DNA of 64,000 bases from Polaromonas sp. (GCA_013298815.1 JAAFJF010000002.1:2191-66190); one strand, 5' to 3'; positions 10,343 to 63,285 are shown, counted from the first letter of the stretch. Translations and numbers: made by a program. Notes: a model not told the origin generated them from the letters alone.

Positions 10343-10367
10343 CCAAATTTACCCCAAATTACCCCTC

Positions 10368-10432
10368 AAATATGCCTCTAGCCGGCGTACTTATTGCCTA
10401 AGTAGCTATTAAAATAGTAGCGAATTTAAAGC
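10368..10432 (-). repeat. dispersed intergenic repeat, copy 3 (full length)
   Basis: The top strand reads AAATATGCCTCTAGCCGGCGTACTTATTGCCTAAGTAGCTATTAAAATAGTAGCGAATTTAAAG. Confidence 0.85.
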
Positions 10433-17956: not shown

Positions 17957-18472
17957 TCAATGATGCAGTTTCCTGATTTTGAACATGCTCAAAATTGCTA
18001 TCAATGCAAGACTGCAAAAACACGCAAAAGACCAATTCGCAATCGATCCACCTAAAAAGGTCCAATCAACTTTGGTGCAATCACCAGAACCCTTCAAAAT
18101 CATAGGAACAAGGTTTTGCAGCGGAAACGTCTCAATCATGCCGTAAATATCGCGCCCACACGATGCGATTTCAGGCGGGTACCACTGAAGCCAGCTTTGA
18201 CGCGCTGCCACAAACGCTCCACCCAGCGCGGTGATGATAACCAACCAAGAAGCGCTGATTTGAATGCCTCTTATCCCAGTAGCCGATGCAATAATTGCCC
18301 ATACAGCTATTAAAATAATAGCATATCGTTGCACAATACACATCGGGCATGGCTCCAAACCGCCAACGTGTTGCAAATAGAAGCCAAAACAAAGCATGGC
18401 AACGCAGCCCACAGCTATCAAAGCCATGATTTGTCTAAAACTAAACCGGTCTAAAAAACTCAAAGCATTCAA
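17957..18472 (-). CDS. dsbB: disulfide bond formation protein B
   Basis: 171 aa with four TM helices, the first periplasmic CxxC (EPCPMCIVQRY) and a second Cys pair (SCGRD...GDCTKVDW). Confidence 0.85.
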   Translation of the reverse strand: MNALSFLDRFSFRQIMALIAVGCVAMLCFGFYLQHVGGLEPCPMCIVQRYAIILIAVWAIIASATGIRGIQISASWLVIITALGGAFVAARQSWLQWYPPEIASCGRDIYGMIETFPLQNLVPMILKGSGDCTKVDWTFLGGSIANWSFACFCSLALIAILSMFKIRKLHH

Positions 18473-22250: not shown

Positions 22251-23099
22251 ATGATGAGATTTATAACCGTAAAATTTGCTACATTTTTGATAGCTGCTCT
22301 GGCAGTATTTACGCCGGCTAGTGCCGTATTTGCACAGTCTTTTGACCACAATTACGCCGCCTATGACGCGCAGCTCAAAAAGCACGTCAAATTTCTACCC
22401 GATGGCAAACAAAGCCGCGTGAACTACAAAGGTTTTGCGTCAGAACGCGCAGAATTGATAAAAACCTTGGAAGCTTTTAGCGCCGTCACTCCCGCTCAGT
22501 TCGCCGCATTCAGCAAAGACCAGCAGATGGCGTTTTTGATCAACGCTTACAACGCTTTCACTATTGAGTTGATTTTGACCAAATACCCCGATGTCAAATC
22601 CATCAAAGACCTTGGCAGCACCTTTTCTAGCCCATGGAAAAAAACCTTTTTCAAACTCTTGGGCGAAGAGCGCAATTTGGACTGGATTGAGCACGACAAA
22701 CTGCGCCCCACAGGCAAAAACATTGTGAATGGCGGCTACCAAGACCCACGCATCCACGTCGCCATCGTCTGCGCCAGTATCGGCTGCCCCGCCCTGCCGA
22801 CAGAAGCATTCACCGCAGCCAAGTTAGACGCGCAATTGGACGCTGGCATGGCACGCTTTGTGCAAGATAAAACCCGCAACCGCTATGAGGGCGGCAAACT
22901 GCAGGTCTCAAGCATTTTCAAATGGTTCAAAGACGACTTCGAAAAAGGTTACAAGGGATTTAGCAAAGTCGAAGACGTTTTCGCCAAATACGCCGATAAT
23001 TTAAGTAATGATTCAGCTATTCAAGGACAAATTCGTGCCAAAACGGTTTCTATCAGCTATCTTGATTACGATTGGTCCCTTAACGATAGCGGTCGTTAA
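22251..23099 (+). CDS. DUF547 domain protein (secreted)
   Basis: The track ORF is 22236..23099 (TTG). I prefer ATG 22251, which follows AGGAAG. It has the signal FATFLIAALAVFTPASAVFA and the DUF547-like core MAFLINAYNAFTIELIL, LDWIEHDKLR and DPRIHVAIVCASIGCPAL. Confidence 0.75.
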   Translation: MMRFITVKFATFLIAALAVFTPASAVFAQSFDHNYAAYDAQLKKHVKFLPDGKQSRVNYKGFASERAELIKTLEAFSAVTPAQFAAFSKDQQMAFLINAYNAFTIELILTKYPDVKSIKDLGSTFSSPWKKTFFKLLGEERNLDWIEHDKLRPTGKNIVNGGYQDPRIHVAIVCASIGCPALPTEAFTAAKLDAQLDAGMARFVQDKTRNRYEGGKLQVSSIFKWFKDDFEKGYKGFSKVEDVFAKYADNLSNDSAIQGQIRAKTVSISYLDYDWSLNDSGR

Positions 23100-25916: not shown

Positions 25917-26372
25917 TTACTGCAAATTCGGAATAACCCGCGTTGGTTTATTATCAGCAGCGGCCTTTCTTTTGTCTGCCCAAACCAAGCTGGTTTTATT
26001 ATCTTTGCAATTTTTAGTATTATCCGAATACTCTATTCTAAACATAGGACATTTCCCGTCGCCATTCCCAGTAATGCCACCGCTCGGGTAACACACCAGC
26101 GCACCATCCTGTGAGTAAAGCTCACTAGGAATATCACAACAAACCGGCGGCACATAATAAACTGGTTTGCCTTCAAATGTAGTTTTTATAATACTGCGTG
26201 GTGGGTTAGAAACTGACCTGCTTTGATAATCCCATATTTTGGCTTGCAACCAAGGCACAACGGTGTCTAGCTTGCCAGAGATATTCTCTACCTTGCTAGA
26301 TTCAGCGGGTTTTTGTGCACAGGCGGAAATACTCAAAACTAGCGCGGCGATAAAAAAGGTCAATGTTTTCAT
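25917..26372 (-). CDS. Cys-rich lipoprotein of unknown function
   Basis: The track ORF extends to 26405. I prefer ATG 26372, which follows AAGGGA. It has the lipobox LVLSISAC and the core KPVYYVPPVCCDIPSELYSQDGALVCYPSGGITGNGDGKCP. G+C is visibly lower than in the flanking core genes. Confidence 0.6.
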   Translation of the reverse strand: MKTLTFFIAALVLSISACAQKPAESSKVENISGKLDTVVPWLQAKIWDYQSRSVSNPPRSIIKTTFEGKPVYYVPPVCCDIPSELYSQDGALVCYPSGGITGNGDGKCPMFRIEYSDNTKNCKDNKTSLVWADKRKAAADNKPTRVIPNLQ

Positions 26373-26400
26373 AGTTTTTCCCTTTGTCCACTCCACTTTG

Positions 26401-26460
26401 TTCACTATACTTTTTATAGCTGCTTAGGCAATAAATACGCTGGCTAGAGGCATATTTTTA
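26401..26460 (+). repeat. dispersed intergenic repeat, copy 4
   Basis: It reads TTCACTATACTTTTTATAGCTGCTTAGGCAATAAATACGCTGGCTAGAGGCATATTT. Confidence 0.85.
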
Positions 26461-26487
26461 TCTCAAACAACTCTAATTTCTGAGATT

Positions 26488-26748
26488 TCAGCTCAGCAGC
26501 TTGTCGTAGTCAGCGTGCGAACCAATCCAAAACCACTGAACACCTTCTTCTACCGAAACGCCCAAAGCTCGGTATGAAATACCAACGCGAACGCTTCGAA
26601 AGGCGGTGCTTTTGATGTGTTTGAAATGTAGTGAAGGATGCGCGGGGTTTTGCTTCAAAAGCTCGAAATTGCTACGCGCCATGTCTTGAACATAACTGGG
26701 TATAGCGTCAAAACAATCCCAAAACTTGCTAGAAGTGAAATGCTTCAA
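26488..26748 (-). CDS. RelE/ParE-superfamily-like type II toxin
   Basis: 86 aa. KFWDCFDAIPSYVQDMARSNFELLKQNPAHPSLHFKHI...RSVRVGISYRALG...WFWIGSHADYDKLL has the size and pattern typical of small mRNA-interferase/ParE-like toxins. It shares a 4-nt ATGA overlap with the upstream small ORF. Confidence 0.6.
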   Translation of the reverse strand: MKHFTSSKFWDCFDAIPSYVQDMARSNFELLKQNPAHPSLHFKHIKSTAFRSVRVGISYRALGVSVEEGVQWFWIGSHADYDKLLS

Positions 26749-26945
26749 AGCTCCCGCGCCTTGCCCAGCTTGTACTCTGCCACGGCTTCAGCTGCAAATA
26801 CATTCAACTTGCCGGCGGTAGCGTCAGACTCCAGCTGAGTATCCCAAGCCTGTGCGTCAAACTTGGCAAACCATGAACGAAACTCTGCCAAATCTTGCAT
26901 GGGCAATTGGGCAATAGCTTGTTCGATAGATTGGACATTGGTCAT
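26745..26945 (-). CDS. cognate antitoxin (small acidic protein)
   Basis: 66 aa from the ATG at 26945 (MTNVQSIEQAIAQLPMQDLAEFRSWFAKFDAQAWDTQLESDATAGKL...). The track's longer 115-aa version (start 27092) runs through intergenic repeat-like sequence, so I rejected it. Confidence 0.55.
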   Translation of the reverse strand: MTNVQSIEQAIAQLPMQDLAEFRSWFAKFDAQAWDTQLESDATAGKLNVFAAEAVAEYKLGKAREL

Positions 26946-27109
26946 GGGTATGCTCCTGAGTTGCTTATATTTTAATCGTTTTGAGTGAAAACGAAGATTC
27001 TGTGCCTTACCTCCCACTTTGAAAAAGAGGGATTGAAGGGGATTTAAAACGCGGCAACCATCCAAACTTGAGGTCGCAAATTGCGATATCAAGTTTTCAA
27101 ACCACTCAA

Positions 27110-27170
27110 TTCACTATACTTTTTATAGCTGCTTAAGCAATAAATACGCCGACTAGAGCCATTATTATGC
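27110..27170 (+). repeat. dispersed intergenic repeat, copy 5
   Basis: It reads TTCACTATACTTTTTATAGCTGCTTAAGCAATAAATACGCCGACTAGAGCCATTATT, and is near-identical to copy 4 over the first 45 nt or so. Confidence 0.85.
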
Positions 27171-27282
27171 CTATTTTATGCGGTATTTGTTGTGTAGACC
27201 TAGGGCGGCTAGGAATAGCAGCATTTTCTATTTCATTTTCATTGACTCTTGAAAATAGTAAACGACACGAAATATTTAACCT

Positions 27283-28191
27283 TTAAGTAGCATGAGTTTT
27301 AATATTTGAAGATACTTCTAGTATTGCATCATTCACAGTAGGATTAATGACATGCGAATCCAAATTTGCAGCTAATATTTTACAATTAATAATGAGATCA
27401 ATTACATCATCTCTATTAATGTTTACTTTTCCACCGTCTTTTTCGTAACCAGCACGATGTACGCAGTCATGCCTTTTAAGTACTGCCTGAAAAAGCCAAG
27501 AAATATTTCCAAAATCATAATTCAATACCGAAGTATACATGGGCTTTATTTTTTTTAAGTCATGAAAAATTAAACTTTTCAAATATATTTCAACTGTATT
27601 TTTTATTTGTGCACTCTCTTGATATATATCTTTCAAAGATAATTTTCTTTTACCAAATTCAGGATCAGTTTCTAATAATTTTTTAATTAAACTATCTGAG
27701 TTTGTCACTTCTCGTATAAATACTGAGGAAAGAAACTGTTCAGTTGCCGCGACAACATGCGCGTACAGCATTACTAATAAACTAAACTCTGTTTCAGAAT
27801 CTAGCTCCTGCATCAAAAGTTTATTTATACTAGAAACATGCTTTTTAAAAATTTCGAATTGCACTGTTGAAGGTGTTTCCCACTGAAATTCAGTTGAATC
27901 ACTTGTATCAAATATTTCAATTAACTCAATATCTGTATTATCTGGTAACCCTTCAATTTCACCATACCCACCGCCAAAACTAACATAAAGATTAATTTCA
28001 AATTCTTTATGACAGCTCTCGCAAACTGCTGAACCGTCTTGAATAACCTGACTGTCACGCGATTTTTCTGCCGAATAGTTAGGTTCAGGTACAAAAATTT
28101 TCTCACTCTTAACTGCTGCATTACATATGTCACAAGTAAACTTAACTGTCAATGACTTAATACCGAACGAACTAAAGCCAAAAGAACTCAA
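27283..28191 (-). CDS. zinc-ribbon + HEPN-like (R-x4-H) protein, candidate defence/abortive-infection effector
   Basis: 302 aa with a TTG start 7 nt after AAGGAG. It has two CxxC pairs (C20/C23 and C57/C60). The C-terminal helical half contains LYAH (aa 142-145) and KRHDCVHR (R240-x4-H245, nt 27457..27474). It is strongly AT-rich: my hand counts are 12/60 and 16/60 G+C in two lines, against 35/60 in a line of the next gene. Confidence 0.6.
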   Translation of the reverse strand: MSSFGFSSFGIKSLTVKFTCDICNAAVKSEKIFVPEPNYSAEKSRDSQVIQDGSAVCESCHKEFEINLYVSFGGGYGEIEGLPDNTDIELIEIFDTSDSTEFQWETPSTVQFEIFKKHVSSINKLLMQELDSETEFSLLVMLYAHVVAATEQFLSSVFIREVTNSDSLIKKLLETDPEFGKRKLSLKDIYQESAQIKNTVEIYLKSLIFHDLKKIKPMYTSVLNYDFGNISWLFQAVLKRHDCVHRAGYEKDGGKVNINRDDVIDLIINCKILAANLDSHVINPTVNDAILEVSSNIKTHAT

Positions 28192-28352
28192 AGTTTTCTC
28201 CTTTGCACAACTAGCATTTTAAATTTGTATCCGTCCAGCCATTCTAAACACTTGATTCAAGCTTAAACACCCTCCTTATATGTAAAAATTCATATAACAA
28301 ACGAACTACAAAGTATTTTGCAATCTAAAGACTTTCCCATAAAGTCACCCCC

Positions 28353-31044: not shown

Positions 31045-31110
31045 TAGATTAAAAATACTATGAAATTAATAGCTGCTCAGGCAACAAATACGCCGGCTAC
31101 AGCCGAAAAT
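31045..31110 (+). repeat. dispersed intergenic repeat, copy 6 (overlaps start of DUF934 ORF)
   Basis: It reads AAAAATACTATGAAATTAATAGCTGCTCAGGCAACAAATACGCCGGCTACAGCCGAAAATG. Confidence 0.8.
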
Positions 31111-33387: not shown

Positions 33388-33413
33388 GACGGAACTTCCT
33401 TAATAACTAAAAA

Positions 33414-33468
33414 CACTATAAATTTAATAGCTACTCAGGCAATCAATACGCCGGCTAGAGTGCTAAAT
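33414..33468 (+). repeat. dispersed intergenic repeat, copy 7 (abuts cysN start)
   Basis: It reads ACACTATAAATTTAATAGCTACTCAGGCAATCAATACGCCGGCTAGAGTGCTAAATG. Confidence 0.85.
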
Positions 33469-37811: not shown

Positions 37812-37860
37812 TGTAGCAGCTTAGGCAAATAAATTGCCGGCTATCAGCAAAATAGCCGGC
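37811..37860 (+). repeat. dispersed intergenic repeat, copy 8 (variant with inverted duplication of the right arm)
   Basis: It reads ATGTAGCAGCTTAGGCAAATAAATTGCCGGCTATCAGCAAAATAGCCGGC. Confidence 0.7.
37836..37860 (+). terminator. stem-loop GCCGGCTAT-N7-ATAGCCGGC after the binding-protein gene (attenuator/terminator-like, no clear T-run)
   Basis: Read directly. It is built from the right arm of a dispersed-repeat copy. Confidence 0.35.
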
Positions 37861-45264: not shown

Positions 45265-45314
45265 GTCAAAACGCACACTTTAGTATTATTAATTTTATAC
45301 TGTTGCTATATTTT

Positions 45315-45400
45315 GTATAGCCGCTTAGGTAGTTAAATCATGGGCTTTTATCATATTTGAATCTTAAAAATTACTATTAAATTGATAGCAAATTTAAAGT
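45315..45400 (+). repeat. dispersed intergenic repeat, copy 9 (degenerate, plus a separate left-arm fragment)
   Basis: It reads TGTATAGCCGCTTAGGTAGTTAAATCATGGGC. At 45370..45400, TTACTATTAAATTGATAGCAAATTTAAAG matches the outer arm of copy 3. Confidence 0.5.
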
Positions 45401-47004: not shown

Positions 47005-47080
47005 TCCTCAATAGCTCAGTTGGTAGAGCGCCGGACTGTTAATCCGTAGGTCCCTGGTTCGAGCCCAGGTTGAGGAGCCA
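47005..47080 (+). tRNA. tRNA-Asn (anticodon GTT)
   Basis: 76 nt. The acceptor stem is TCCTCAA/TTGAGGA. It has the D-arm AGCTCAGTTGGTAGAGC, the anticodon loop CTGTTAA, the T-arm GGTTCGAGCCC and an encoded CCA. Confidence 0.95.
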
Positions 47081-49465: not shown

Positions 49466-50173
49466 TTATTTGTTCACCGGAGACTGAGGATCCAGCAACA
49501 GCGCCATGACGTGCTTGACTTGCTGCTCAGTCAAAATGCCAGCATCACCAAACCTAGGCATGTTGCTACACAAATTGACAGAATGCGTATTCCAAATCCG
49601 AGCCCATGTGTATTTGACGATAGCTTCTGAATCTTTAGAGGTGACATCTTTAACGCCACGAATCGTGCCGTACTTCATCAGTGATGGGCCTTGGTTGCCG
49701 AAACTGATTTCAGTCGGTGTCAACTGGTGACAGGCATAGCAATTTGCACCATTGGGCACGCCAGCCACATCACTGAATTGCAATCCACGTCCGTTTTGGG
49801 CAATTTTTTCACCTTCTTTCCAATCCCCTGTGTAATTACCATCTTTGGGGTAAGGAATCGCAGCGTAAATAGCTTGCTCCATCTTCTCGCGCGTCGCTTT
49901 AGGCACCTCTTTGCCACTGGACAGCGATTCAGAACAGACTTTTTGAATCTCCGTTTGATCCAACCTATCAAGCTTAGCAAGGCCTCGTTCTGCGAAACTT
50001 CCCTTGATAGTTGCAAGAACCTCAGCAGCACTAGGTTTTTGCACAGAGCTTGATGCACAGCTGGCGAGCATAGCTATACATGCAGTTAGAATGGACAATT
50101 TAGCTACATTTTTAATAGCAGTAGAGGCATATAAAACGGTGGCTGATAGCTTATTTATCATAATAAATCTCAA
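49466..50173 (-). CDS. soxX: sulfur oxidation c-type cytochrome SoxX
   Basis: 235 aa with a single haem site NCYACHQL, followed by GNQGPSLMKYG and NMPRFG. Its position between soxA and soxB supports the call. Confidence 0.8.
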   Translation of the reverse strand: MRFIMINKLSATVLYASTAIKNVAKLSILTACIAMLASCASSSVQKPSAAEVLATIKGSFAERGLAKLDRLDQTEIQKVCSESLSSGKEVPKATREKMEQAIYAAIPYPKDGNYTGDWKEGEKIAQNGRGLQFSDVAGVPNGANCYACHQLTPTEISFGNQGPSLMKYGTIRGVKDVTSKDSEAIVKYTWARIWNTHSVNLCSNMPRFGDAGILTEQQVKHVMALLLDPQSPVNK

Positions 50174-52112: not shown

Positions 52113-53267
52113 CTATTTGACCGCCCCTTGCGAAATCCAAGTTGCCACTTTTTTTGCATCCGTATCACTCAAACTTTGTGCTGGCATCGGCATGCTTCCG
52201 TAAACACCTGACCCACCACTTTTTATTTTTGCAGTTAGATAGGCCACCGCATCTGCCTTACTGCCCTGCTTTGCAAGTATTTCTTTAAAACTTGGCCCAA
52301 CAATTTTATTGTCGATGCCATGACAGGCCAAACATGCGTTTTTGCTCAAAATGCCAGAAACATCAGCACTTTTTAGTGATGTATTAGATTCCACAGATTT
52401 CTCAACTGTTTTAGCCGCTGCAACTGTGATAGCGGGGATGACGACCGCTTTTTTAGCATCAGCACCTGTACTCACGGCAGGTTTGGTTGTATCTGCACCT
52501 ACTGAAGGACCAAAAGCACGCGTTTGCTCTGCCAAATTGCCGTGCGCATTACGCGCATGCTCTGGCAACAAGCTTGCAACCTTGGCTTCCGTCACGCAGT
52601 TAGTCATACAGTTAGAGCCTTGCGTATCTGGCTTGGTGACGCCGCCAAACTCATTACCTGGCCACATCGCGTGCTTGGTCATCATGCCATTTCTGTTTGG
52701 CAATTTGTTTTGAGTTTCCACCATATTTTTATCACTCAAGGTGAAGTTTTCTGGCACCACATTGGCGATATTAAGCAGGTATGCTGTCACAGCGTAAACC
52801 TCATTCGGCTTTAATGATTTCGGCGCTGTCCACGGCATGGCACGGTTGATGTAATCCCACAGAGTTGACAGTTGCGAGACTTTCATCATCGTGGTACGGG
52901 TGGGCGTTGCAGCCTCGGGCATCAGGCTGGCAACACGACCTGTTTCAACGTCTTTCTTCGTGGTGTAACCCACCAAAGCGCTGAAAACCGTGTTGTTTTC
53001 ACCAAAGCTGCCATGGCAAGATGCACACTGCGCTTCCCACACTTTTTCACCTTGCGCTACACTGCCCATGCCTTTCGGCAAGCCTTTGAAGTCTGGCCTA
53101 ACATCAATATCCCACGCTGCAACTTCATTTGTCGTTGCAACTCTACCAACAGCCTCGTATTTCCCCTGAGAAATGCCTGTAGCAGGCGTCATTATTGTCA
53201 AAGCTGCTATTATTTTTGCAATCATTTGCGACTTAAAATTCGATGAAAAATCAAGATAATTGAACAT
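52113..53267 (-). CDS. soxD: dihaem cytochrome c SoxD
   Basis: 384 aa as listed. An alternative start at 53225 would remove the 17-nt overlap with soxC. It has two haem sites, CASCHG and CLACHG. Confidence 0.8.
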   Translation of the reverse strand: MFNYLDFSSNFKSQMIAKIIAALTIMTPATGISQGKYEAVGRVATTNEVAAWDIDVRPDFKGLPKGMGSVAQGEKVWEAQCASCHGSFGENNTVFSALVGYTTKKDVETGRVASLMPEAATPTRTTMMKVSQLSTLWDYINRAMPWTAPKSLKPNEVYAVTAYLLNIANVVPENFTLSDKNMVETQNKLPNRNGMMTKHAMWPGNEFGGVTKPDTQGSNCMTNCVTEAKVASLLPEHARNAHGNLAEQTRAFGPSVGADTTKPAVSTGADAKKAVVIPAITVAAAKTVEKSVESNTSLKSADVSGILSKNACLACHGIDNKIVGPSFKEILAKQGSKADAVAYLTAKIKSGGSGVYGSMPMPAQSLSDTDAKKVATWISQGAVK

Positions 53268-56382: not shown

Positions 56383-56559
56383 GTTTATATGTCAATTAAT
56401 ATATATGGTTATTCATCTAAACACATATAACTATACTCGATACATCAGTTTTGTACGAGCACATTTTGTACGTAAAAACCCTTAAAAAGCAAGAATTTAC
56501 TTACTAAAAGTTGACAATTCATAGGCGACAATGATGGCTTCATCTTAAAAAAATGCTCC

Positions 56560-56612
56560 TCTTTTAATAGCTATTCAGGCAGTAAATACGCTGGATATAA
56601 GCATTAAATGCA
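56560..56612 (+). repeat. dispersed intergenic repeat, copy 10
   Basis: It reads CTCTTTTAATAGCTATTCAGGCAGTAAATACGCTGGATATAAGCATTAAATG. Confidence 0.8.
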
Positions 56613-58973: not shown

Positions 58974-59100
58974 GGTAGCGAGTTCAATCTTAGAGGACAT
59001 CAATGAAGTAGCACCGATTATAGTCATCGGTTGTCTGATGACCTGTATTTTGCAATTACACCTTAAAGTTGTCAAGTGCGAATCAATCTCACAAGTAAAC

Positions 59101-59155
59101 CGCTATATTTTAGATAGCAGCTTAGGCAGTAAATACGCTGGATACAGCCAAATTT
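59101..59155 (+). repeat. dispersed intergenic repeat, copy 11
   Basis: It reads CGCTATATTTTAGATAGCAGCTTAGGCAGTAAATACGCTGGATACAGCCAAATTTG. Confidence 0.8.
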
Positions 59156-59184
59156 GTATAAAAGTTTAGATATTTACGGTTCAC

Positions 59185-62252: not shown

Positions 62253-63243
62253 TCACCCAAGCACCGGTTTTTTCAGACATAAATAAGGCATCAATGACAC
62301 GCATGTTCAAAATTGCGTCTTCAACACCATACGGCAAGGTCATTTCGCCACGCACCACCTTAGAAAATGCATCACCCTGCAAACCGTACATATTGCAGGC
62401 CGGCAAGGTGTGTTTTTGCATAGATGAACCATTTAGCGCACCACCATCGTCCAAAAAATAATCAGTTTCACCACCCAATGGTGCATTGAAAGGTATTTGT
62501 ACTTCGATCCGCTTTTTAGTTCCCACCACCTGCACGCGCTGGTGCGACACAGATTGCGTGGAAACCGTGAAATCCAATCGACGTCCATCACCAAAATCTA
62601 GCAAAGCACTGACGGTACGATCAACTTTGAAGTCAGGGTCGCGGTCAACCAAGGCAATGACGCGCCTGGGTTCGGCATCAAACAAAAACCGACCCATCAC
62701 AATCGGGTAGCAACCAATATCGTACAACGCACCACCGCCAATTTCATACTTGTTACGGATGTTGTTAGTGTCGCGGTTGAAGTACGAAAAGAAAGCTTGC
62801 ACGGTTCGCAAATCGCCCAATTCGCCACTGCGCACACGCTCACGCACCTGCAGCCATTGCGGATGAAAGCGTACCATGAAGGCTTCCATGATGTGCACTT
62901 TGCCGGCCACCTCACGCAGCTGCGCTGCTTCGTTGGCGTTGATGGCAAAGGGTTTCTCGCACAACACATGCTTACCCGCTCGCGCTGCTTGCAGCGTTAA
63001 CGGCACATGCAAATCGTTGGGCAAAGGGTTGTAAATGGCTTCAATCTCAGGGTCAGCCAGCAAAGCCTCATACGAACCGTAGGTTTTGGGAATACCCAGC
63101 TTAGCCGCCCACTCATCTGCTTTGCCGGGCGCACGCGAGGCGATGGCTCGCACATCGCAGAACTCGCTCTGTTGCATAGCAGGGATAACCTTCTCCCAAC
63201 CAATTTTGGCGGTACTAAGAATACCCCATACTACTTTTTTCAT
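62245..63243 (-). CDS. Gfo/Idh/MocA family NAD(P)-dependent oxidoreductase
   Basis: 332 aa with the N-terminus VVWGILSTAKIGWEKVIPAM and the EKP motif (VLCEKPFA). It overlaps the downstream FG-GAP gene by 8 nt. Confidence 0.85.
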   Translation of the reverse strand: MKKVVWGILSTAKIGWEKVIPAMQQSEFCDVRAIASRAPGKADEWAAKLGIPKTYGSYEALLADPEIEAIYNPLPNDLHVPLTLQAARAGKHVLCEKPFAINANEAAQLREVAGKVHIMEAFMVRFHPQWLQVRERVRSGELGDLRTVQAFFSYFNRDTNNIRNKYEIGGGALYDIGCYPIVMGRFLFDAEPRRVIALVDRDPDFKVDRTVSALLDFGDGRRLDFTVSTQSVSHQRVQVVGTKKRIEVQIPFNAPLGGETDYFLDDGGALNGSSMQKHTLPACNMYGLQGDAFSKVVRGEMTLPYGVEDAILNMRVIDALFMSEKTGAWVNV

Positions 63244-63285
63244 AGCTATAATCCTAATAAATACGCCGGCTAAAGGCTAATTTAA
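63243..63285 (+). repeat. dispersed intergenic repeat, copy 12 (partial)
   Basis: It reads ATAGCTATAATCCTAATAAATACGCCGGCTAAAGGCTAATTTAAG, starting at the start codon of the Gfo/Idh/MocA gene. Confidence 0.6.

Follow-up and report, generated by a model that had tools for sequence, protein, structure and literature searches.

A putative zinc-ribbon/HEPN protein encoded by a foreign cassette in Polaromonas sp., a candidate one-gene abortive-infection RNase

Introduction

HepS is a solo HEPN abortive-infection protein from the prophage Gifsy-1 that senses a phage tail-tip protein and cuts tRNA anticodon loops, and the survey of its stand-alone homologues left out sequences exceeding 250 amino acids (aa) in length or with additional domains (PMC13043305). 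This article concerns a 302-aa protein with a predicted zinc ribbon and a predicted HEPN domain, encoded in a stretch of 64,000 nucleotides (nt) from Polaromonas sp. (GCA_013298815.1 JAAFJF010000002.1:2191-66190), referred to below as the window. Its gene, which a sequence-only reading of the window had singled out as a candidate undescribed defence or abortive-infection module, is real, foreign and specific to the strain, and its product is a candidate solo abortive-infection RNase.

Other HEPN systems also bear on this gene. The Ribo L-PSP-HEPN family is bacterial and distantly related to AbiF/AbiD, and RiboL-PSP HEPN domains were originally described as fusions to endoRNase L-PSP and in operons with ParB (PMC3710099). 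AbiJ-type HEPN proteins show a sensor-plus-effector pattern (PMC3710099). Defence genes abound in integron cassettes; one of them is Esos, a HEPN-like single gene of Vibrio cholerae that protects against phage (bioRxiv 10.1101/2024.07.02.601686).

A foreign gene in a strain-variable slot

The gene and its predicted parts, all on the minus strand, are as follows.

27283..28191, minus: HEPN gene, 302 aa, start TTG at 28189-28191 and stop TAA at 27283-27285 (open reading frame call and full-length homologues)
28198..28203, minus: Shine-Dalgarno AAGGAG, 6-nt spacer to the TTG (homologue N-termini from other taxa align with the TTG start)
27907..28191, minus: predicted all-beta zinc-ribbon domain, aa 1-95, with a conserved D46 (only strands in the AlphaFold2 (AF2) model, predicted local distance difference test score (pLDDT) 83-96)
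28123-28134 and 28012-28023, minus: CxxC knuckles C20/C23 and C57/C60 (cysteine pattern in relatives)
27337..27882, minus: predicted all-alpha HEPN domain, about aa 104-285, a divergent PF18735 HEPN_RiboL-PSP (PF18735 matches in relatives, AF2 model)
27454..27474, minus: predicted catalytic motif R240-H-D-C-V-H245-R246 (R-x4-H; invariance in relatives)
27739..27741, minus: codon of the acidic E151, on the HEPN domain's long first helix (invariant in relatives)
27562..27564, minus: codon of H210 (invariant in relatives)

The sequence-only reading had taken the open reading frame (ORF) for a real gene with a TTG start behind a strong AAGGAG; the 302-aa ORF was confirmed, with a measured spacer of 6 nt, and the two cysteine pairs, the LYAH of aa 142-145 and the KRHDCVHR with R240-x4-H245 were all located where that reading had put them. 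The ORF is not there by chance: it is conserved from end to end in homologues, and those from unrelated taxa start at the TTG position in the alignment. A word-indexed search found 145 relatives of the protein. With HMMER, run exhaustively, 1,432 representative clusters were recovered at E<=1e-3 (804 at E<=1e-10); the resulting family size of about 1,400 counts clusters at 50% identity. Family members carry only "hypothetical" annotation.

The composition of the gene was found to be foreign, as had been suspected: its G+C content (GC) is 31.8% against a window mean of 49.8%, and its GC at third codon positions (GC3) is 21.5%, compared with GC and GC3 of 56.6% and 63.6% in the tauE-like gene and 60.9% and 77.5% in cysI. 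All 909-nt windows with a GC below 0.38 fall within 26.7-28.6 kb, the sole strongly AT-rich stretch of the 64 kb. The segment is also absent from the contigs of sister strains. The gene was gained horizontally, and recently, from a low-GC donor.

The absence in sister strains was observed by comparing the window by blastn with ten related metagenome contigs (L068-L077), which had been found through an identical 66-aa antitoxin-like protein encoded nearby. Homology with these contigs stops on one side of the gene and resumes on the other, and the features of the slot so defined are as follows.

27223..28217, minus: acquired, strain-specific cassette of 995 nt with the HEPN gene (sister-contig homology breaks off at 28218, towards tauE, and returns at 27222)
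28219..28242, minus: leader mini-ORF MAGRIQI-stop, in frame with the HEPN ORF (junction alignment; closed by TAA at 28219-28221)
27099..27169, minus: copy of a dispersed repeat on the 3' side of the HEPN cassette (repeat hidden Markov model, HMM)
27163..27222, minus: extension of that repeat copy, kept in sister strains whatever the slot gene (sister alignment)

Comparison of the tauE junction among related strains, as the sequence-only reading had proposed, thus revealed a strain-variable islet, in which the place of the cassette is taken in sister contigs by a gene for a pentapeptide-repeat protein (459 aa) or a DUF2971 protein (279 aa), or else by one for a 230-aa protein or by other sequence. 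A near-identical copy of the HEPN ORF (97.9% DNA identity) was found in another sample.

The conserved region on the tauE side supplies a promoter region, a ribosome-binding site, and an ATG with the codons M-x-G-W-I-Q-I-Q(-T-F...). In sister strains (L068:8250-, L069:2438-, L071:665-), this leader runs in frame into the pentapeptide, DUF2971 and 75-aa genes. A fusion in frame with the HEPN ORF was likewise found in 96%-identical sequences from other samples, reading MFRMTGWIQIQNASSVKEKT-L-SSFGF; one of these sequences (P0001) begins MFRMTGWIQIQNASSVKEKTLSSFGF. The leader of the window has TAA in place of CAA, and with the leader so closed the gene is left with its native AAGGAG/TTG start.

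Domain architecture of the protein

The C-terminal half is, as judged from the profile matches of its relatives, a divergent RiboL-PSP-type HEPN domain. PF18735 was matched by seven of 52 close relatives and, in a diverse set of 125, by 50, and the assignment was made because full-length relatives score above the Pfam gathering score of 28.4: P0244 at 35.9 bits and P0236 at 45.6 bits (profile positions 7-191). The former, a 290-aa protein of the zinc-ribbon type, aligns (E 2.7e-28) to residues 6-279 of the query. For P0002, which shares 70% identity with the query, the score was 27.0 bits, slightly below the gathering score. The protein is also matched by PHROG 29321 (function not assigned) at E 1e-42. 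RiboL-PSP had been one of several HEPN families named as candidates by the sequence-only reading, and this guess was right; the accompanying statement that the protein could not be placed in a named family no longer holds.

The R-x4-H of the motif KRHDCVHR (R240-x4-H245, nt 27457-27474) had been recognised as a possible signature of HEPN RNases, to be judged by its conservation. In alignments of 125 and of 140 diverse sequences, the sole invariant columns were E151, H210, R240, H245 and R246; R240-x4-H245 is also unchanged in the 52-sequence alignment of close relatives. Rx4HR was present in 261 of the 268 relatives retrieved, and most of those without it are fragments. The helix-rich character expected of this half was borne out by AF2 models built with the family alignment, in which the HEPN domain is all-helical: the whole protein reached a pLDDT of 83.8 and the HEPN domain modelled alone, with nine helices, 96.1.

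The N-terminal domain is, on its cysteine pattern and predicted fold, a putative zinc ribbon specific to the family. The four cysteines are all-or-none: all are present in 96 of 125 relatives, and the remainder have none. Such an all-or-none set is expected of a structural zinc site. In the AF2 model, the domain is all-beta and both CxxC knuckles are flanked by or follow beta-strands, and the zinc-ribbon arrangement first proposed from the two CxxC pairs is thus supported on both counts. Curated zinc-ribbon profiles gave sub-threshold matches only (the query matched DUF4428 at E 0.11; a few relatives reached 1e-3 to 1e-4 with Zn_ribbon_3 and others). A search with the N-terminal 100 aa alone for other effectors fused to the same zinc ribbon returned no matches. 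Relatives without the cysteines carry other N-domains: a Cys-less domain in Enterobacterales-type proteins, HEPN/Toprim-NTD1, or HNH. The family would accordingly consist of a constant, predicted HEPN effector with interchangeable N-domains.

Distribution and genomic context of the family

The family is solitary and carried by mobile elements. A set of 66 loci from species-representative genomes covered Gamma- and Betaproteobacteria, Campylobacterota, Cyanobacteria, Planctomycetota, Chlorobium and others, and 63 genome loci entered the neighbour count. Clustering of the proteins within 5 kb at these 63 loci revealed no common neighbour beyond closely related Psychrobacter genomes, and the 120 immediately flanking proteins matched 93 different Pfam families, with no recurring partner and no MNT protein. 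The earlier impression that the gene has no partner thus extends to the family.

Several homologues lie in integrons. In Vibrio sp. ES.051 (L037:5000-15000), the homologue is placed between two of 15 VCR-type attC sites, and similar attC arrays surround homologues in Photobacterium and Vibrio nereis (L015:10585-10705, L019, L063). The Vibrio and Photobacterium relatives are genuine integron cassettes, in arrays with as many as 18-24 attC-type repeats. In a deltaproteobacterial metagenome-assembled genome and in Pseudoteredinibacter (L013:7906-9381, L039:7834-8835), an IntI-like integrase was found one or two cassettes from the homologue, at E 1e-73 to 1e-77 with an IntI1 query.

Other mobile elements are also represented. 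One homologue is found in an integrative and conjugative element with a PIN-TPR-GreABC protein and TraG, and another in an island bounded by an integrase. Homologues occur on 47 plasmids, 32 of them conjugative, and one adjoins NACHT and RES-toxin genes; 75 IMG/VR viral contigs also carry them. The homologue of Pseudomonas phage LKA5 comes with a promoter and a terminator of its own, both annotated (predicted), and stands between the genes for a C5-methylase and a LexA-like repressor, a layout that we read as that of a moron, an accessory gene transcribed independently.

Comparison with described HEPN systems

Of the named families, RiboL-PSP-HEPN (PF18735) is closest: in full-length relatives, about 180 C-terminal aa cover the profile from end to end, and the R-x4-H is invariant. 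Unlike the proteins originally described, however, this branch is solitary, has a predicted zinc ribbon or other N-domains, and includes a query that falls below threshold. AbiJ and Taranis share a swappable N-domain joined to a conserved HEPN effector and travel on mobile elements, integron cassettes included (bioRxiv 10.1101/2024.07.02.601686; PMC3710099), whereas their HEPN domain belongs to another family (Abi_C) and no Pfam or PADLOC match links them to the present protein.

HepS resembles the present protein as a solo HEPN protein with no partner and a canonical Rx4-6H, and as an accessory gene near a prophage regulatory region, like the LKA5 homologue. It differs in being smaller, with a single domain and no zinc ribbon, which follows from the size and domain limits of the HepS survey, and what triggers it, how it oligomerises and which tRNA it targets are known. 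No similarity to HepS was found in PDB sequence, profile or fold searches, provided that the searched copy includes 9OIJ/9OIK, and the likeness is functional only.

ApeA, reportedly a single-gene HEPN defence described by Gao et al. in 2020 and held in Pfam as PF18739, is alike in consisting of one HEPN protein, and weak PF18739 matches were seen in four of the 125 relatives (best E 3.5e-4). Its N-terminal region differs, however, and neither the query nor any of the 125 relatives matched the ApeA models of PADLOC. Esos, compared by description only, and the integron cassette HEPN protein of PDB 3JRT are HEPN proteins encoded in integron cassettes, like the Vibrio and Photobacterium relatives; 3JRT was not among the matches of PDB sequence or fold searches with the query. 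The HEPN-MNT pairs of toxin-antitoxin types II and VII likewise contain a HEPN RNase toxin, but the MNT partner is absent here and in the 63 loci.

Proposed function and alternative explanations

The function that we regard as most likely, with somewhat more confidence than doubt, is that of a solo two-domain HEPN RNase toxin for abortive infection or exclusion, with the zinc ribbon as sensor or regulator. The HEPN protein would be made constitutively in an inactive state, and its N-terminal domain, or a rearrangement of the oligomer, would sense a cue from a phage or foreign element. HEPN domains would then pair their R-x4-H motifs (predicted R240 and H245) into an active site, and the active protein would cut host RNA, halting growth before the invader spreads. 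The RNA would be tRNA or mRNA, the usual targets of HEPN proteins. Counted in favour of this function are the profile placement and invariant residues of the predicted HEPN domain, the all-or-none cysteines, the two confident models, N-domains that vary within the family in the manner described for AbiJ-type proteins, the lack of a partner, the mobile and conflict settings of relatives, the PADLOC candidates in the slot and array of a sister strain, and the precedents of HepS and of defence genes in integron cassettes.

A number of results weigh against this function. The query itself had no Pfam (for PF18735, none at E<=1), NCBIfam or PADLOC match. The PADLOC search that had been proposed as a check therefore gave no support: PADLOC-DB 2.0.0 (2023; later systems not included) returned nothing for the query and, for the 125 relatives, no validated system and only scattered weak matches. 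Structure comparison, used to look for a HEPN-like bundle, likewise gave no significant match. Since Foldseek with the full-length model gave noise, the HEPN domain was remodelled alone on the 140-sequence alignment, and neither the full model nor the domain, for all its pLDDT of 96, had a significant match in PDB or BFVD; the best PDB match of the domain had an E of 0.3, with template-modelling (TM) scores of at most 0.3, and 1wwp, which we take to be a HEPN protein, ranked 31st with TM 0.24-0.30. Searches of PDB by sequence and profile gave coiled-coil and TPR noise only, with no solved relative of the family. The predicted HEPN fold is thus backed by sequence profiles and the invariant motif, and not by structure comparison. 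Regarding context, the support for defence is indirect: some homologues have mobile or conflict surroundings, consistent with a conflict role, but only about eight of the 120 flanking proteins match PADLOC models (PDC-S15, PDC-M69A, Avs2, HEC-07, PDC-S06, PDC-S64), most of these being unvalidated candidates, and many family loci lie among ordinary metabolic genes. Finally, the TAA in the leader of the window may alter expression of the gene.

Three other explanations were weighed. It seems unlikely that the gene is a stabilisation or addiction toxin instead of an immune gene, keeping the array, cassette, plasmid or prophage in place with the zinc ribbon or an unseen small RNA as antidote. Toxin-antitoxin cassettes do adjoin it in the array (ParE-like here, Gp49/HI1420 in sister strains); integron arrays and conjugative plasmids, both of which hold relatives, carry stabilising toxin-antitoxin modules (PMC12548467), and the HEPN proteins of HEPN-MNT pairs are classical toxins of such modules (PMC3710099). 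On the other hand, no conserved antitoxin gene was found beside the HEPN gene in the 63 loci, any more than an MNT neighbour, and no small ORF lies within the 995-nt cassette. We know of no clear precedent for single-gene addiction among HEPN proteins, which also counts against this explanation.

A little less probable still is an RNase that processes or regulates RNA for the mobile elements themselves, acting on their own transcripts or excluding competitors, and is not host-protective. The presence of relatives in phage LKA5, viral contigs and conjugative plasmids, amid long runs of small co-oriented genes, would suit such a role, as would the lack of an assigned function for PHROG 29321. 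The chromosomal copy described here is nevertheless not in a phage or plasmid, with no integrase or phage gene found in the window, and a patchy, solitary family fits accessory conflict genes better than functions at the core of an element. Least probable is that this strain carries the gene as a silent or decaying passenger, which would contribute nothing because the nonsense codon in the leader uncouples it from the promoter and start codon of the slot. Although TAA 28219-28221 does interrupt the leader that the 96%-identical sequences have joined in frame to the HEPN ORF, and a GC3 of 21.5% implies codon usage ill-matched to the host, the ORF runs unbroken through its 302 codons and has lost none of the invariant residues, has its own strong AAGGAG and a start at the position used in unrelated taxa, and has its near-identical copy elsewhere.

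Cassette array and dispersed repeat

Downstream of the slot, small co-oriented cassettes follow one another: ParE-like/antitoxin, Gp49/HI1420, ORF6N, NnrU and several unnamed genes. The array spans the interval from tauE to a DUF6970 lipoprotein gene (25917-28352 in the window; L068:8131-13300, L069:2319-5700, L070:1-5400, L071:546-7000), and its cassettes of one or two genes are each bounded by one co-oriented copy of the repeat. With the slot gene in parentheses and the cassettes lettered, their order is (HEPN), A in the window; (pentapeptide), A D in L069; (230 aa), B A C D B in L070; and (DUF2971), B D E A C F B G in L071. Because two of the alternative cargo genes match PADLOC candidates, namely the DUF2971 slot gene (L071:665-1504; PDC-S31, E 3e-53) and the ORF6N cassette gene (L071:3939-4487; PDC-S05, E 3e-52), the data suggest that the array is enriched in conflict genes. 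The setting, described by the sequence-only reading as typical of a small defence islet, is instead a variable gene array punctuated by repeats.

The features next to the HEPN cassette are as follows.

26488..26945, minus: toxin-antitoxin cassette, with a 66-aa antitoxin-like gene at 26745-26945 and a ParE-like toxin at 26488-26748 (PF24732 ParE_like, E 8.6e-9)
26393..26458, minus: second repeat copy, which closes the toxin-antitoxin cassette and precedes the DUF6970 lipoprotein gene (repeat HMM)

The antitoxin-like protein had no family match and is identical in 17 contigs; an alternative 115-aa ORF from TTG 27092 probably does not mark the true start of its gene. The ParE-like pair, which had been the only visible candidate for a partner of the HEPN gene, was rejected as such: it forms a cassette of its own, which 10 related contigs of sister strains carry in the absence of the HEPN gene, and HEPN homologues occur without such a neighbour. 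Between the repeat and the antitoxin gene lies a near-perfect 25-nt palindrome, TTGAnnTCGCAATTTGCGAnnTCAA (27068-27092), which may be the operator of the toxin-antitoxin cassette; copies in the sister contig L068 (9836-9883, 10544-10591, 10842-10889) lie upstream of the antitoxin gene and in or upstream of the ORF6N cassette. At the far end of the array in sister strains (L068:13197-13263, L070:4834-4899, L071:6485-6553), the DUF6970 lipoprotein gene (MKIIAFF...LAAC lipobox) has its ATG and initial codons within the last, most degenerate repeat. The 5' end of the lipoprotein gene differs in the window (26372-26405, minus), where the likely ATG (MKTLTFF...) is about 20 nt downstream of the repeat. 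The sole Rfam match in the window, a tRNA gene at 47005-47077 (plus), showed no link to the islet.

The dispersed repeat noticed at the edge of the islet is real. It is about 60-74 nt long with the core CTCTAGCCGGCGTATTTATTGCCTAAGTAGCTATnAAAAnTATAGTAAATT, and the HMM found at least 16 copies in the window, or about one per 4 kb, including the two given above.

Repeat copies in the window: 1556-1614, 2796-2849, 10367-10431, 18276-18330, 22264-22332, 26393-26458, 27099-27169, 31048-31107
Repeat copies, continued: 33406-33461, 37814-37850, 45303-45356, 50097-50158, 53169-53212, 56555-56605, 59096-59156, 63229-63285

The copies lie in short intergenic gaps in both orientations, except the weak 18276-18330 and 53169-53212, which fall inside ORFs by a crude ORF call. 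No significant hairpin was found in the repeat (z 0.0 to 0.7), inspection by eye showed no RYYYAAC/GTTRRRY cores, and there was no Rfam match. Its identity as attC, as a classical repetitive extragenic palindromic element or as a terminator was rejected, given the lack of a fold and the dispersal of copies genome-wide between core genes in both orientations. A plain promoter was likewise rejected: TTGCCT-16-TATAGT is present, yet many copies are antisense between co-directional genes. The array of the window was also rejected as an integron, as the repeat has no hairpin, its copies are dispersed both ways between core genes, and there is no IntI/Xer-like ORF; queries with IntI1 and with a locus-derived integrase found no tyrosine recombinase in the window.

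A broader proposal is that the slot beside tauE and the repeat-bounded array form an integron-like capture platform without IntI or attC, and that this platform and the zinc-ribbon/HEPN abortive-infection family are both undescribed. The slot would lend landing genes its promoter, ribosome-binding site, start codon and M-x-G-W-I-Q-I-Q leader, and cassettes bounded by the genome-wide repeat of about 60 nt would be shuffled between strains. This joint claim is unlikely, about as much so as an addiction toxin.

Significance

Pfam and PHROGs already hold the domain family, and defence by a solo HEPN protein is an established idea, so this is not a new kind of system. Should the protein prove an active RNase and abort phage infection, the defence catalogue would gain a widespread one-gene system, with about 1,400 clusters, in integrons, plasmids and prophages. 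The natural series of swapped N-domains would also help in studying how solo HEPN proteins are switched off and on. The repeat-punctuated cassette array is unusual and may merit a study of its own. The locus also shows an uncultured freshwater Burkholderiaceae lineage swapping small accessory genes at a single site where no integron machinery is recognisable.

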